From assembly GCA_022530585.1 (NCBI GenBank), contig CP092821.1:70222-134221 (forward strand): a stretch of 64,000 nt of DNA. The letters are read 5' to 3'. This DNA is from Candidatus Nealsonbacteria bacterium DGGOD1a (GTDB taxonomy: Bacteria; Patescibacteriota; Minisyncoccia; Minisyncoccales; UBA5738). Positions 24,008 through 29,840 of the stretch are shown here, one piece after another. The notes below the pieces were generated by a model. It was not told where the DNA came from. It searched no databases and was given only the letters and a program-made list of their open reading frames with translations. Each line of letters begins with the position of its first letter. The stretch's first letter is position 1. Made by a program: the position numbers and the translations under genes.

Positions 24008-24086
24008 TAAAGTTTAAAATTAAAAATATAAAGACATTTTAAATTTTACATTGTAATTTTGATTTTTGATTTTTACATTTTAAATT
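24008..24086. repeat. AT-rich palindromic intergenic repeat (atpB/atpZ spacer)
   Basis: Contains attttacattgtaattttgatttttgatttttacatttt, the reverse-arm consensus of the family. Confidence 0.75.
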
Positions 24087-24087
24087 T

Positions 24088-24318
24088 ATGAATATGTTGG
24101 CGCGGGCGATGGCGGTGGGATTGGAGCTGGGATTCGCAATTGCGATTCCTTTGGTGGGGTTTTTGCTTTTCGGATTGTGGCTGGACCGCAGAATTGGCAC
24201 AACGCCGCTATTTATGATAGTATTCTTGCTGGCGGGGCTGGCGGTGGTTGTTATCGAAGTGAAGCAGTTAATTTTGCCGTTTCTTGAAAAAAGGTCAAAA
24301 AAGAATGATAAATTATAA
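24088..24318 (+). CDS. AtpZ/AtpI-family small membrane protein
   Basis: 76 aa with two TM helices, a typical AtpZ/AtpI layout. It sits between atpB and atpE. Confidence 0.6.
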   Translation: MNMLARAMAVGLELGFAIAIPLVGFLLFGLWLDRRIGTTPLFMIVFLLAGLAVVVIEVKQLILPFLEKRSKKNDKL

Positions 24319-24347
24319 ATTATCATTGATAAATTAAATAAAAAAAT

Positions 24348-24575
24348 ATGGAATTAGAAGTAATGAGACAGTTGGCCGCGGCGATTGCCATCGGCGTGGG
24401 TGCCATTGGGCCCGGTTTGGGCATCGGTTTTATCGGCCGGGGAGCTATGGAAGCTATCGGCCGCAATCCGGAAGCCGCGGGCAAGATCAGTACGAATATG
24501 ATTTTGGCCATCGCGTTCACGGATGCCATCGCGATTTTCGCGCTGGTGGTGGCGTTGATAATTCGCTTTGTTTAA
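24348..24575 (+). CDS. atpE: F0F1 ATP synthase subunit c
   Basis: 75-aa hairpin proteolipid. It has the GxGxGxG-type helix 1 ([15 protein letters not shown]) and a carboxylate in helix 2 (AFTDAIAIF). Confidence 0.9.
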
Positions 24576-24646
24576 TTGTTTTGGCGGAGTTTTATGCTCC
24601 GCGGTTTGCCGGTTAATTGGCGGGCAAACCATAGAGCGTAAGAATA

Positions 24647-24783
24647 ATTTTCAATTTTCAATTTTCAATTTTCAATAAAATTACAATGTTCCAATGTCAC
24701 AAACAAAATGCGAATCCGGTATTTTGTTTGGATATTGAATTATCGGAACATTCATTGAAAATTGGAGTTTGAAAATTGAAATT
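24647..24783. repeat. ~137-nt AT-rich imperfect palindrome between atpE and atpF
   Basis: (TTTTCAA)n 24647-24675 pairs with (TTGAAAA)n 24754-24783. Inner pairs are aatgttcc/ggaacatt and caaacaaaat/attttgtttg. Confidence 0.8.
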
Positions 24784-24792
24784 TGCAAGGTT

Positions 24793-25852: not shown

Positions 25853-25867
25853 GAACTAAATATTATT

Positions 25868-27376
25868 ATGGATAAAATTGAACAATTCAAACGCCAGCTC
25901 GAAGAGACGGAATTGTCGCCCAAGCTTGACGAGATCGGCGAAGTGGTTGAGGTGGGCGACGGCGTGGTTAAGGCGTCGGGTTTGCGAAATGTGGAGAATT
26001 TCGAATTGGTCGAATTCGAGCGCGCGAAGGTTTTTGGTTTGGCGATGAACCTTGAGGAATACGAAACCGGCATTATTGTTTTAGGCGACGATTCGGGCAT
26101 CAAGGAAGGCGATATCGTGAAGCGCACAAAGAAGACGATTTCCGTGCCGGTGGGCAAAGAATTGGTTGGCCGCGTAGTCGATCCTCTCGGCCGCCCGATC
26201 GACGGCAAAGGACCGATCAACGCCAAAGAAGAATATTTGGTTGAAAGGCCCGCGCCGGGCGTCATTGATCGCCAGCCGGTGAAAACGCCGTTGCACACGG
26301 GGATTTTGGCCATCGACAGCTTGGTTCCGATCGGCCGCGGCCAGCGCGAACTGATTTTAGGCGATCGCGGCTTGGGCAAGACCGCCATCGCGGTCGATAT
26401 GATTTTAAACCAGAAGAACGACAAGAATCGGCCGGTTTGTATTTATGTCGCCTGCGGCCAGAAGAAATCCAAGGTTAAGCGGATGGTGAAGATATTGGAA
26501 GATGCGGGCGCGATGGAATACACGATTGTGGTCGCGGCATTTGCCGACGATCCGGCGGCGTTGTTGTATTTGGCGCCTTACGCCGGTTGCGCGATGGGCG
26601 AGTGGTTTCGCGACAACGGCCAGGACGCGATAGCGGTTTATGATGATTTGACCAAGCAGGCTTGGGCGTGGCGCGAAATATCTTTGGTGTTGCGCCGGCC
26701 GCCGGGAAGGGAGGCGTATCCGGGAGATATTTTTTATTTGCATTCGCGCTTGCTTGAGCGCGCGGCGCGGATGTCCGCGGCGAAAGGCGGCGGTTCGCTG
26801 ACCGCGTTGCCGATCGTGGAAACGCAGGCCGGCGATATTTCCGGGTATATTCCCACCAATGTCATTTCGATTACCGACGGCCAGATATTTTTGAGTCCGG
26901 CGCTGTTCTACAAGGGTCAGCGGCCGGCGATCGATGTGGGTACTTCGGTTTCCCGCGTGGGATCCAGCGCCCAGTTGCCGGCAACCAAGAAAGTGGCCGG
27001 GACTCTGAAGCTTGATTTGGCGCAATTTCAGGAATTGGAAAGGTTTTCCGAATTTACCGAAGAACTTGATCCGCAAACCCGCCAAATGCTGGAACGCGGC
27101 AAGCGCATGCGCGAACTTCTAAAACAGGCCGATCTGCAGCCGTTGCCGTTTGAAAAGGAAACGGCGATCATTTTTGCGGGAGTAAAAGGTTTTTTGGATG
27201 ATATGCCTCTTGAGCGGTTGGCGCAATTTAAGATTGATTTGATCGCTCGCATCGAGGACGATTCCCCTGAAATTTTGAAAACTATCCGCGAAACCGAAAA
27301 ACTTGAATCCGCCATCGAAGCCAAGCTTGAGGAAGTGATCAAGAATGTCAAGAAGACAAAATCGGAAAGTAAATAA
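25868..27376 (+). CDS. atpA: F0F1 ATP synthase subunit alpha
   Basis: Walker A GDRGLGKT. 502 aa. High similarity to the alpha-subunit pattern throughout. Confidence 0.95.
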
Positions 27377-27381
27377 TTATT

Positions 27382-28254
27382 ATGGAATTAAAGGAGATCC
27401 GCCTAAAAATCCAATCGGTTTCCAACATCTGGAAGCTGACCAGCGCTCTTGAAACTTTGTCGGCGCTGAAAATGAAAAAATCCCAGAAATTCGCTTTGCT
27501 GTCGCGGCCGTTTGCCCAAAAGGTGGGGCGGCTGGTGCGCCGGCTGGAACCGATGTTGAGAGACAGTGTTTCGCTGCGCAAAAGAAAATTGCGGACGGCG
27601 CTGGCGGTGGTGATCGCCAGCGACCGGGGTTTTTGCGGATCGTTTAACCAGAATATTTTAAAGACTGCCCAAATTGAAATTGAAAAACTTGAAAAGAAAT
27701 CGGATGTCGCGGTTTTTCCGATCGGAAAGAAGGCGGTGGCTTTTTTCAAAAAGCGCGGCCGGAATTTCGATCAAAGTATGACCGGTATCGGGGATTACGG
27801 ATCGCTGGAGGAAATAAAACCGGTTTCCGATTTCATAATCAGATCCTACATCGAAAACAAGTACCAGCGGGTTTACCTTGTATGGACCGACTTTATTTCC
27901 ACATTCAACCAGAAGCCGCGGTCAATGCAGCTTTTGCCCCTGGAATGGAACGAACTTAAGGAATTCGCGCAGGAAAGCGACAAGGAAGCGATGGACACCG
28001 AAACCTTGATCGAGCCGTCGCCGCAAACGCTGGTGAAAGAAATTATTCCCCAACTGGTGGAATATTTGATTTACCAGTGCATTTTGGAAAGCAACGCTTC
28101 GGAACATTCGGCGAGGATGACGGCGATGCGCAACGCTTCGGATAATGCCCATGAGCGGGTCGGCGAATTGACTTTGGATTATAACAAGGCGCGCCAGGAA
28201 CAGATTACCAATGAGGTCTGCGAAATTTCTTCGGCGAAAGAAGTGTTGGGTTAA
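27382..28254 (+). CDS. atpG: F0F1 ATP synthase subunit gamma
   Basis: N-terminal IRLKIQSVSNIWKLTSALE and C-terminal ARQEQITNEVCEISSA are gamma hallmarks. Confidence 0.9.
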   Translation: MELKEIRLKIQSVSNIWKLTSALETLSALKMKKSQKFALLSRPFAQKVGRLVRRLEPMLRDSVSLRKRKLRTALAVVIASDRGFCGSFNQNILKTAQIEIEKLEKKSDVAVFPIGKKAVAFFKKRGRNFDQSMTGIGDYGSLEEIKPVSDFIIRSYIENKYQRVYLVWTDFISTFNQKPRSMQLLPLEWNELKEFAQESDKEAMDTETLIEPSPQTLVKEIIPQLVEYLIYQCILESNASEHSARMTAMRNASDNAHERVGELTLDYNKARQEQITNEVCEISSAKEVLG

Positions 28255-28370
28255 ATCAAAATGTAAAAATCAAAATGAAAAATGACAATGTAAAATTAAA
28301 AAATGAAAGGCTAAAAATTTTAACATTTTAAACCGTCATTTTTAATTTTGATATTTAAATTTTAAATTTA
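28255..28370. repeat. AT-rich palindromic intergenic repeat (atpG/atpD spacer)
   Basis: aaaatgtaaaaatcaaaatgaaaaatgacaatgtaaaatt ... ccgtcatttttaattttgatatttaaatttt. Confidence 0.8.
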
Positions 28371-28374
28371 TAAC

Positions 28375-29736
28375 ATGGCAAAAATAATTCAGATAATCGG
28401 TCCGGTGGTGGATGTGGAATTCGAGGAGAACAAACTTCCGTCGCTTGGTAACGCGTTGAAAGTGGCCGGCAAAAATCTTATTCTGGAGGTCCAGCAGTAT
28501 GTGGGCGGCGGCGGCGTGCGCTGTTTGGCTATGGGCCCGACCGAAGGGTTGAGGCGCGGCGAGGAGGTAACGGATACGGGAAGCCCGATCACGGTTCCGA
28601 CCGGAAAGGCGGCGTTGGGCCGGCTCTTTAATGTGTTGGGCGAACCGATCGATGAGATGGGCGCGGTGGTTAGCGAAAAACGCTATTCTGTTTTTAAGGA
28701 AGCCCCGAATTACTCCCAGCAAAAAGGCGAAGTGGAAATTTTGGAAACCGGGGTGAAAGCAATCGATCTTCTGTGCCCGATTCCGAAAGGCGGCAAGATC
28801 GGCCTTTTCGGCGGCGCGGGCGTGGGCAAAACGGTATTGATCCAAGAGCTTATCCGGAATATCGCCAAAGTGCACAAGGGCGTGTCGGTGTTCGCGGGCG
28901 TGGGCGAACGGACGCGCGAAGGCAACGACATTTATATTGAAATGAAAGATTCGAAAACTTTGGATAACACGGTGCTGTACTTCGGCCAGATGTCGGATCA
29001 GCCGGGCGTGCGTTTCCGCGTGCCGTTTTCGGCCGTGGCAACTTCGGAGTATTTTCGCGACGAGGAAAAAAAGGATGTTTTGCTTTTTGTTGACAATGTG
29101 TTCCGTTTTGTGCTCGCGGGTTGCGAAGTGTCGGCTTTGATGGGCCGCATTCCTTCCCAGACCGGCTACCAGCCGACGCTGTTTACGGAAATGGGCGCGC
29201 TTGAGGAGCGTATCACTTCGAACAAGGAAGGTTCGATTACTTCGATGCAGGCGGTTTATGTGCCGGCCGATGACTATACCGACCCGGCCGTGGTGGCAAT
29301 CTTTTCGCATTTGGATTCATCGCTTGTTTTGAGCCGCCAGATAGCTTCGCTGGGTCTTTTCCCGGCCGTTGATCCCCTGGTAACCACTTCATCGATATTG
29401 AATCCCCATATTGTGGGCGAGCGGCATTATCGCGTGGCTTCCGGCGTGGCCCAGATTCTTCAGCGCTACAAGGAATTGCAGGATATCATCGCGATTCTGG
29501 GCGTGGAAGAATTGGCCGATGAAGACAAGCTGGTGGTGAGCCGCGCGCGCAAAATACAAAAGTTTTTATCACAGCCTTTCTTTGTCGCCGAGGCGTTCAG
29601 CGGCAAGTCGGGCAAATATGTCAAACTGGCCGATACCATCGAGGGTTTTGAGAGGCTGATCTCCGGCGAATTTGACGACCGCAACGAATCGGATTTCTAT
29701 ATGAGAGGCGCCATTGATGAAGTCGTTAATAGTTAA
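28375..29736 (+). CDS. atpD: F0F1 ATP synthase subunit beta
   Basis: Walker [16 protein letters not shown]-region analog. 453 aa. Confidence 0.95.
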
Positions 29737-29840
29737 AAATTGAAAAATCAAAATGAAAAACGACAATGTAAAATTTAAAATGCATTTCATAATTTTACAT
29801 TTTGAATTGTCGTTTTGATCTTTGATATTTATATTTTCAA
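29737..29840. repeat. AT-rich palindromic intergenic repeat (atpD/atpC spacer)
   Basis: aaaattgaaaaatcaaaatgaaaaacgacaatgtaaaattt ... aattttacattttgaattgtcgttttgatctttgat. Confidence 0.8.

Follow-up and report, generated by a model that had tools for sequence, protein, structure and literature searches.

Palindromes in the atp operon spacers of a Patescibacteria genome as probable gene-less miniatures of a cassette of the 23S rRNA intervening-sequence type

Background

In a stretch of 64,000 nt of the genome of Candidatus Nealsonbacteria bacterium DGGOD1a (contig CP092821.1, positions 70,222 to 134,221; hereafter the window), spacers between the genes of the F-type ATP synthase (atp) operon are filled by AT-rich imperfect palindromes. 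From comparison of sequences we conclude, with a probability of roughly three in four, that these palindromes are non-autonomous miniatures, lacking the open reading frame (ORF), of a cassette that carries a PF05635 gene, is of the intervening sequence (IVS) type and lives in the spacers of mRNA operons. That mRNA operons of Patescibacteria harbour a cassette of this type together with its miniatures would be new. Our literature search found no paper linking heptamer repeats (outside Coxiella) or palindromes of the candidate phyla radiation (CPR) to four-helix-bundle cassettes, and nothing on MITEs (miniature inverted-repeat transposable elements) or palindromic repeats in CPR bacteria; its coverage was incomplete, so that novelty is unproven.

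The system to which the cassette is compared is the IVS of the 23S rRNA gene. In Coxiella burnetii this IVS measures 444 nt, has a terminal stem of 28 bp and contains an ORF for the S23p protein (PF05635), with two or three tandem GACAGAT heptamers directly before the S23p start codon; RNase III cleaves at the first repeat (PMC4990558). In one strain 176 bp of the ORF are deleted, and origin and function of the IVS are called unclear in the same paper (PMC4990558). Ralph and McClelland, as cited there, proposed a mobile element whose ORF aids its mobility (PMC4990558).

Results

A palindrome family with six copies in the window

The window holds six copies of one palindrome family, here called family A, which align at 70% mean column identity: four occupy atp spacers, a fifth lies upstream of nusA and the sixth separates tig and clpP. 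A hidden Markov model (HMM) built from the arms of these six copies and run over the 64 kb returned exactly the six family-A places and no other significant match, with paired inverted matches at 25763-25855, 28255-28367, 29733-29840, 43720-43833 and 46223-46337 (E-values of 1e-5 to 1e-9 per arm). The 22-base arm pattern AAAAATCAAAANNNAAAAYGACAAT, allowing at most two mismatches, occurs in eight arms of the window and in none of 100 dinucleotide shuffles. An inverted-repeat search likewise recovers the palindromes reported by an earlier note, which had been made from the letters of this DNA alone, and with the arm HMM and the pattern it confirms the six copies listed there.

The family-A elements measure 80-130 nt, have an A+T content of 75-89% and end in sequences of the form AAATTTAAAATGTAAAAATC. 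Five of them fold better than shuffled sequences, at -18 to -33.5 kcal/mol (z -3.0 to -7.3). The atpH/atpA copy (25763..25855, no strand assigned) has arms at 25763-25807 (+, E 1e-5) and 25811-25855 (-, E 4e-9), folds at -18.2 kcal/mol (z -3.0) and has an orthologous copy in L001, the nearest of the 22 relatives considered below (L001-L022). Three copies read on the + strand, namely those in the atpG/atpD spacer (28253..28369; arm E 5e-9 and 4e-9; -20.4 kcal/mol, z -3.7), in the atpD/atpC spacer (29733..29840; 8e-9 and 2e-7; -25.6 kcal/mol, z -4.4) and immediately upstream of nusA (43720..43835; 4e-9 and 5e-7; -21.0 kcal/mol, z -3.8). The tig/clpP copy (46221..46339, no strand assigned; 2e-9 and 2e-7; -33.5 kcal/mol, z -7.3) spans its entire spacer from stop codon to start codon. 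The sixth copy, in the atpB/atpZ spacer (24003..24087, no strand assigned), folds at -10.4 kcal/mol, which is not significant (z -1.1), and has a well-matched right arm (24040-24085, E 2e-8) next to a weak left-arm match (24006-24040, E 0.6). Alignment with L005, L001 and L003 reveals that it is without the outer left-arm segment, a deletion that explains both the weak match and a fold no better than that of shuffles.

The atpE/atpF spacer is occupied by a hairpin of another family, family B (24640..24789, no strand assigned), with (TTTTCAA)n/(TTGAAAA)n arms and a fold of -51.8 kcal/mol (z -7.9); its arms (24646-24679 and 24751-24784) are 85% complementary, with a lag-7 autocorrelation of 0.69. 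Five atp spacers (B/Z, E/F, H/A, G/D and D/C) thus hold hairpins as the earlier note had said, the one in E/F belonging to a different family from the rest. That AT-rich spacers would resemble each other merely through slippage of A-tract heptamers is a reading for which the strong 7-nt periodicity and an A+T content of about 85% speak; it is hardly credible in view of the eight pattern matches against zero in shuffles and of the recurrence of the same 45-nt arm in more than 100 unrelated loci, around one conserved gene.

A gene-bearing cassette and its deletion series

A metagenome scan with the 22-base arm pattern gave at least 119 stretches, and the census was made with the arm HMM across the window and 154 loci; the loci, and the counts of elements and arms that follow, derive from the matches listed. 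These comprise 96 two-armed elements and 56 solo arms, ten of the latter at contig ends. By size, the two-armed elements fall into 83 of 66-136 nt, 5 of 153-271 nt and 8 of 439-536 nt.

In six of the eight long forms, the arms enclose one and the same ORF of 123 aa. Its product matches PF05635, "23S rRNA-intervening sequence protein", with 68 bits (cut-off 33.8), as well as TIGR02436, "four helix bundle protein", with 82.5 bits, and PDB 2RLD. The full cassette thus consists of about 440 nt, in which two inverted arms of 45-50 nt, 75-96% complementary to each other, make up a long stem enclosing the four-helix-bundle gene. The left arm contains the start codon and the first nine codons of the ORF (AAAATGGAAAATGACAATGTAAAGTTT, read as M E N D N V K F). 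Both arms are arrays of 7-nt units, as seen from a lag-7 autocorrelation of 0.63 over 137 family-A arms compared to about 0.25-0.35 at neighbouring lags, and of 0.66 on average over 17 arms from all families.

Partly deleted members link the cassette to the short palindromes. In L110 (184 nt) an in-frame deletion joins codon 12 to about codon 94, and L129 (220 nt) keeps codons 5-33. In the window itself, the atpG/atpD copy still holds 11 N-terminal codons (MKNDNVKLKNE) in the direction of the atp genes, with a peptide score of 48 on the + strand against 13 on the - strand, and the atpD/atpC copy holds MKNDNVKFKM, also in the atp direction (score 40 against 9). Compared copy by copy, these forms show that internal deletion of the gene leaves behind arm-to-arm palindromes of 80-130 nt. 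The selfish REP/MITE-like elements that the earlier note had offered as an alternative are supported and can be specified further: the parent would be a cassette with a PF05635 gene between terminal inverted repeats, and the palindromes its derivatives without the ORF.

The association of gene and arms also holds where the arms played no part in the retrieval: all four cassettes fetched by protein identity, and not by the arm pattern, have arms. They lie in a secD/secF spacer, on a Beckwithbacteria contig, on a 640-kb Patescibacteria contig and on a Terrybacteria contig. On the last of these, four consecutive spacers of a TrbL-PrgI-TraC-TraG cluster are filled, three by short palindromes and one by a full cassette, much as in the atp operon of the window. 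In the secD/secF cassette, a GC-rich insert of 95 nt flanked by duplicated ATCAA sits in the left arm (L157 2905-2999, also L158 and L161, compared to L156) as a strain-level polymorphism, which implies that the arms themselves are targets of another small mobile element.

In the two remaining long forms the arms enclose other genes, one of the glyoxalase family and one weakly nucleoside-deoxyribosyltransferase-like. A transposase was never found in longer relatives with the same ends, their cargo being the four-helix-bundle gene or, now and then, a different small gene. Arms that enclose one small gene each, of varying family, and imperfect palindromes of 60-140 nt between co-directional genes, are also what one would see if the arms were attC-like or other recombination sites and the spacers the cassette boundaries of an integron-like system. 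We judge that very improbable: the cargo is found in the centre of a palindrome and not between successive palindromes, the arm keeps its sequence in more than 100 loci, unlike attC sites, in which only the structure is conserved, the atp genes stand in their ancestral, conserved order whether or not elements are present, and no integrase is present among the window genes examined.

Insertion and turnover in the atp spacers of relatives

Comparison of AtpG places the window in the Patescibacteria, order Minisyncoccales, with an identity to the window of 96% for L001, 77-82% for L002-L010 and 44-65% for L011-L022. Every atp spacer was measured in these 22 relatives. In the more distant genomes (L012-L017 and L022) the atp spacers measure 0-20 nt or the genes overlap, and in the near clade spacers of 70-320 nt occur, at positions differing between genomes; for example, the 113 nt of the window's atpD/atpC spacer compare with 5 nt in L005 and 28 nt in L010. 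Long atp spacers always hold a hairpin-forming palindrome, and its sequence family varies by genome. In the atpB/atpZ spacer, L003 has family A and L006 family B between flanks that are about 93% identical, the whole stretch from stop to start being exchanged. The family-B hairpin between atpE and atpF of the window is absent from L001, again with flanks about 95% identical and wholly different spacers, which amounts to replacement of the whole spacer and not to a clean insertion.

The gene-bearing form is seen here as well: in the close relative L008 the atpD/atpC spacer contains a 76-aa PF05635 fragment between inverted arms. Arms of the (GTAGCTT)n and (AAAYTCC) types are matched by ORF-less palindromes that L019-L021 and L002/L009 have between their atp genes, and for this reason the relatedness that the earlier note had sensed among palindromes of different sequence was right in kind. 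From the tiny spacers of distant genomes and the differing families in sister genomes it follows that the palindromes are insertions with fast turnover and not ancestral features of the operon. As far as such comparison of spacers reaches, it shows that several element families invaded ancestrally tiny atp spacers in the Minisyncoccales lineage and were quickly replaced or eroded. Unrelated spacers in related genomes, which the earlier note would have read as low-complexity coincidence, do occur, but they hold other element families and no low-complexity noise.

Placement relative to genes

The arm recurs in more than 100 loci with almost all flanks mutually unrelated, the 96 two-armed elements occupying more than 80 unrelated gene contexts. 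For 67 elements both flanks could be scored, and every one of these has protein-coding genes on either side, 58 in tandem, 5 convergent and 4 divergent. Elements start 0-8 nt past the upstream stop codon and stop 0-12 nt short of the downstream start codon, junctions as close as insertion into an ancestrally tiny spacer would give. The polarity of short forms relative to transcription is random (8 co-directional, 11 opposite), and copies with the ORF or a fragment of it are co-directional with their neighbours in five of five cases with both flanks of at least 100 codons, and in seven of seven by our reading of the peptide scores.

The position right before start codons also fits a different explanation, in which the right arm would be a sigma-70-type promoter (TTGTCA-N17-TAnATT) ending 8-17 nt before the start codon and giving each atp gene a near-leaderless mRNA, with the left arm its mere mirror image. 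Hexamers with 17-nt spacing can be read in five of the six copies, two of the hexamer pairs being listed by a promoter scan, and most copies end 0-12 nt from the ATG. The lack of a Shine-Dalgarno motif before these genes makes this reading attractive. However, the -35-like and -10-like hexamers are conserved equally in the arm on the stop side (0.79/0.75) and the arm on the start side (0.81/0.78), solo arms do not favour the promoter orientation (7 against 13), other spacer families, such as (GTAGCTT)n and (AAATTCC)n, are without such hexamers, and a palindrome would fire equally antisense into the upstream gene. The excess of weak promoter-like matches in the region (27 against 11.5) is accounted for by the AT-rich heptamers. 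A promoter for each gene, as the earlier note had considered, is therefore improbable. Intrinsic terminators were considered too and rejected, the scan listing none at the palindromes, whose stems are almost pure A-T with no G+C-rich stem.

Some solo left arms read in frame into unrelated genes (L057, L077, L132, L137 and L154), giving N-termini such as MQNDNLKFKN-; the arm-fused genes include a lipoprotein, a glycosyltransferase-like and a RidA-like gene. At L168 (1477-2535) the whole four-helix-bundle ORF is called together with a pilin-like gene as one product of 352 aa. Such in-frame fusions of arm and gene may be real or may be annotation traps; at gene starts about five to six solo arms are fused in frame and five are not, which in this small sample is indistinguishable from an expectation of one third.

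Constraint on gene-less copies and on intact cassettes

Between the window and L001, fourfold degenerate sites in the atp genes are 88.6% identical and the arms of orthologous palindromes 84.9%. Whole palindromic spacers are 61-77% identical, a low value caused by indels at the hairpin tips, and the sole non-palindromic spacer is 89% identical. With arms diverging at or above the synonymous rate, the ORF-less copies are unconstrained, and those of the window are shown by this comparison to evolve at about the neutral rate. Among the arm mismatches of 49 elements, read on the sense strand, there are 54 G.U and 53 A.C; as G.U is not favoured over A.C, there is no sign of upkeep as an RNA structure of the sense transcript. 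The atpH/atpA copy (25763-25855) differs from its L001 orthologue (5324-5437) by a cluster of about ten A-to-G and T-to-C changes in both arms, which raise its G+C content; examples, from L001 to the window, are TTGAAAAATC to TCGGAGAATC and TTTTGATTT to TTTCGGTTT.

The eight to nine intact, ORF-bearing copies have a ratio of non-synonymous to synonymous divergence (dN/dS) of about 0.07 with dS saturated. Their fourfold degenerate sites are 42% identical, and identity reaches 77% in the non-coding right arm (shuffled control 61%) and 81% in the outer left arm. A constrained protein together with conserved non-coding arms argues that both are functional parts of the intact element. The cassette protein is 82-100% identical across CPR classes; recent horizontal transfer was considered for this identity and dropped, since saturated synonymous divergence means strong constraint.

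These data bear on the possibility that the hairpins are selected cis-regulatory RNA of the atp mRNA, serving as processing sites or 3' stabilisers that set subunit levels. The hairpins fold stably and are placed right between cistrons that encode products required in unequal amounts, other copies adjoin highly expressed genes (nusA, tig/clpP), and REP and Correia elements act as mRNA processing or stabilising elements in other bacteria. Yet the hairpins are absent from the atp operons of distant relatives, with their 0-20-nt spacers, sister genomes have unrelated families or nothing in the same spacers, the same element occurs in spacers of unrelated operons (secD/secF; TrbL-PrgI-TraC-TraG), and divergence at or above the synonymous rate, the lack of a sense-strand G.U bias and random polarity all speak against selection. 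We consider such a role unlikely; none of the tests run supports the selected function in mRNA processing, stability or translational coupling suggested by the earlier note. In sum, there is no sign that the atp palindromes are evolved regulators, and selection for a promoter or for mRNA stability is not indicated.

Operon setting and other repeats of the window

The window has a G+C content of about 45% and its genes lie almost all on the + strand. A Pfam search confirms the F-type ATP-synthase operon with atpB (23289-24002), an atpZ/I-like gene (24088-24318), atpE (24348-24575), atpF (ending at 25275), atpH (25368-25766), atpA (25868-27376), atpG (27382-28254), atpD (28375-29736) and a short atpC (29850-30089); nusA, tig and clpP were placed by the same search within 43842-46927. 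The location of the atpZ/I-like gene between atpB and atpE is an unusual feature of the operon. AtpC has just 79 aa, corresponding to the N-terminal beta-sandwich only, and AtpH has 132 aa with a match limited to the C-terminal part of the oligomycin sensitivity-conferring protein. No Shine-Dalgarno-like purine run precedes the start codon of any atp gene (23289-30089). Rfam at the gathering threshold found six tRNAs in the whole window and nothing else.

Three further places, which the earlier note had counted among related (ATTGAAA)n palindromes or tracts, are not palindromes but one-sided heptamer arrays, all on the + strand. The (ATTGAAA)n array at 2464..2513, like a solo family-B arm, lies upstream of a gene starting at 2542 and belongs to the direct-repeat families D7 and D8; the inverted-repeat search gave no inverted partner for it. 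A short ATTGRAA-like heptamer array (5700..5731, D7 family) is found upstream of tRNA-Ser (5752-5838), and upstream of tRNA-Ala a solo right-arm-like tract is followed by (ATTGAAA)-type units (32595..32645), with 84% identity to the family-A right-arm reference (D5) and a weak arm-HMM match at 32595-32615.

A number of other repeats were seen. A second repeat family, a GC-rich perfect hairpin of 38 nt (GGGGTCTAACCCCTG-CGATTACA-CAGGGGATAGACCCC), has four copies (3833-3886, 17746-17799, 25324-25377 and 43573-43626), all intergenic, in the same orientation and without a T-run behind; one of them, unrelated to family A, fills the atpF/atpH spacer, the sixth atp spacer with a hairpin. The motif CCCCAGTGAGGGG at 549 and 43627 adjoins other hairpins in both places, and CCCCAGT is the heptamer unit of the cyanobacterial short tandemly repeated repetitive (STRR) sequence STRR1, a likeness that may be coincidence. 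The element at 7340-7515 resembles a MITE, with a length of about 175 bp and arms of 85 nt (TTGAGAGTGTAGAAAAACT...). Elements closely related to it are nested, in opposite orientations, inside other palindromes of the atpH/atpA and atpB/atpZ spacers of L009. The hairpin AAAGGGTCCGACCCTTT occurs as two tandem copies at 39015-39062 within a 413-aa ORF (38629-39870) whose frame stays intact (..NFKRVRPFLKGSDPFKKN..), and once more between genes at 43480; the in-frame pair resembles the in-frame palindromic inserts of Rickettsia. A large palindrome at 60165-60344, with 90-nt arms that are 79% complementary and no loop, overlaps the start of a gene at 60319. Finally, two near-identical direct duplications (58191-58474/58688-58971 and 54202-54444/54681-54923; 98% and 100% identity) lie about 480-500 nt apart and span small ORFs.

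Discussion

The way in which such elements could persist in operons can be sketched as follows. The hairpins would be co-transcribed with the operon and fold into imperfect, A-U-rich stems of 35-50 bp, and copies would be tolerated since a stem is cut or ignored between cistrons without harm to the flanking ones. By analogy with rRNA IVSs, RNase III is the likely nuclease, and its cleavage of co-transcribed hairpins is plausible; the gene for this enzyme (rnc) is kept in at least 90% of CPR genomes (PMC12641178). Copies would spread by trans functions of intact cassettes, for which the four-helix-bundle protein and the conserved arms are candidates.

Several points weigh against the descent of the palindromes from an IVS-type cassette, or against parts of this scheme. 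Co-transcription of the hairpins with the operon and their cleavage by RNase III are inferred from sequence, and the rnc signature motif was not found in the window or in the loci scanned for it. No intact cassette or PF05635 gene is present in the 64-kb window, which leaves mobilisation in trans within this genome conjectural. Because the arm pattern served to choose the loci, the figures for arm conservation in the short forms are biased. With other cargo in two of the eight long forms, the element could in the first place be the arms, which would often carry the four-helix-bundle gene as a passenger. No examined copy lies inside an rRNA gene; the loci scanned for it had no 23S signature, and the one 16S gene among them (L125) is distant from the arm there. 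No consistent target-site duplication emerged at about 90 junctions, where the element ends are AT-rich and abut stop and start codons, and no high-identity pair of an empty and a filled site was found, the 155 loci yielding, outside atp, one duplicate contig pair and one distant pair. For want of both, insertion is deduced from phylogenetic presence and absence.

Feature by feature, the cassette matches the Coxiella IVS except in its location, with excision a putative further likeness. Like the S23p IVSs of C. burnetii and Leptospira (PMC4990558), it has about 440 nt, a stem of complementary termini, a PF05635 ORF and ORF-deleted variants, tandem heptamers upstream of and into the start of the ORF, and a sense orientation inside a transcription unit. 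It differs in that every copy examined lies between protein-coding genes and not in helix 25 or 45 of 23S rRNA, in its longer (45-50 nt), AT-rich arms, and in being multi-copy with many ORF-less derivatives.

With MITEs and the Correia elements of Neisseria the palindromes share their short, gene-less and multi-copy nature, inverted repeats, an intergenic location that includes operons and a presence that varies among relatives. Correia hairpins are co-transcribed and are RNase III substrates, and the present elements would likewise be co-transcribed. In contrast to MITEs and Correia elements, the parent carries a four-helix-bundle gene and no transposase, and heptamer arrays make up nearly the whole element; a target-site duplication was not detectable at the AT-rich junctions. 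Palindromes between genes are also known as repetitive extragenic palindromic (REP) sequences and bacterial interspersed mosaic elements with their REP-associated tyrosine transposases; REPs often lie at the 3' ends of genes in operons and can stabilise mRNA. REPs, however, measure 20-40 nt, are GC-rich, have a GTAG head and go with a Y1 transposase, none of which holds here. The cargo resembles the accessory variability determinant (Avd) of diversity-generating retroelements, being a homologous four-helix bundle (PF05635, with weaker matches to bAvd, PF22296), but the ORFs with bAvd as their best match (L015, L041) lack heptamer arms. Neither a reverse transcriptase nor a template repeat appeared among the Pfam-annotated neighbours of the cassettes, although no search aimed at them was made.

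The GGGAATC repeats of Xanthomonas, often in convergent pairs, and the heptamers of Nostoc are intergenic, frequent in operon spacers and of reportedly unknown function, and no link to S23p is described for them (PMC4692102). Our elements share with these Xanthomonas and cyanobacterial STRR-type repeats the tandem 7-nt units and the intergenic location in operon spacers; a difference is that those repeats are not known to be linked to a gene or to mobility.

Such a link may be more general. Every other ORF in the loci with PF05635 as its best match lies between inverted arms of 27-53 nt, about 350-410 nt apart, and about ten PF05635 subfamilies have each their own heptamer, among them (ATCCTTA)n, (GTAGCTT)n, (ATGAATT)n, (GTAGATA)n, (AAAACTC)n, (GGAATTT)n and (TTTCTAA)n. 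With a heptamer proper to each protein subfamily, the pentameric protein would be expected to recognise its own repeats, as DNA or as RNA, for spread or for clean excision. In a small sample of plasmid-borne four-helix-bundle genes (from Calothrix, Nostoc, Trichormus, Pseudanabaena, Picosynechococcus and Riemerella), all seven are co-directional with their neighbours, several in recognisable gene clusters (examples are cas10/cmr3, cas6/cas4 and a place upstream of a TrbI/VirB10 gene), and in six of these seven cases arrays of heptamers, for the most part inverted, lie on either side of the gene. A single protein query gave more than 5,500 clusters of relatives at 90% identity (E <= 1e-5).

We therefore put forward, as a tentative proposal to which we give somewhat less than even odds, that inverted heptamer arrays with a PF05635 gene form one ancient class of selfish cassette across phyla, which would include the 23S IVS, the palindromes of Patescibacteria and at least part of the repeats of cyanobacteria and Xanthomonas. 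If this is true, the cassette settles where an excisable RNA hairpin is harmless, that is, in operon spacers and 23S rRNA loops, and the classical IVS, the palindromes and at least part of the heptamer repeats are one kind of element, seen either in its intact form or as footprints that have lost the ORF.

Conclusions

For the annotation of streamlined CPR genomes, the miniatures would account for AT-rich spacers of 100 nt inside core operons, and they call for caution in naming such spacers promoters, terminators or riboswitch-like regulators. They would also account for assembly breaks and, where an arm runs in frame into a gene, for N-terminal extensions that are spurious. The nature of the 23S rRNA IVS and the role of its S23p ORF have been a standing question since about 1990, and the present family, whose members in ordinary Patescibacteria operons range from intact through partly deleted to ORF-less, offers a comparative system for the arms, the heptamers and the protein. 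Should the wider proposal hold, it would also say where the heptamer repeats found in cyanobacteria and Xanthomonas come from.

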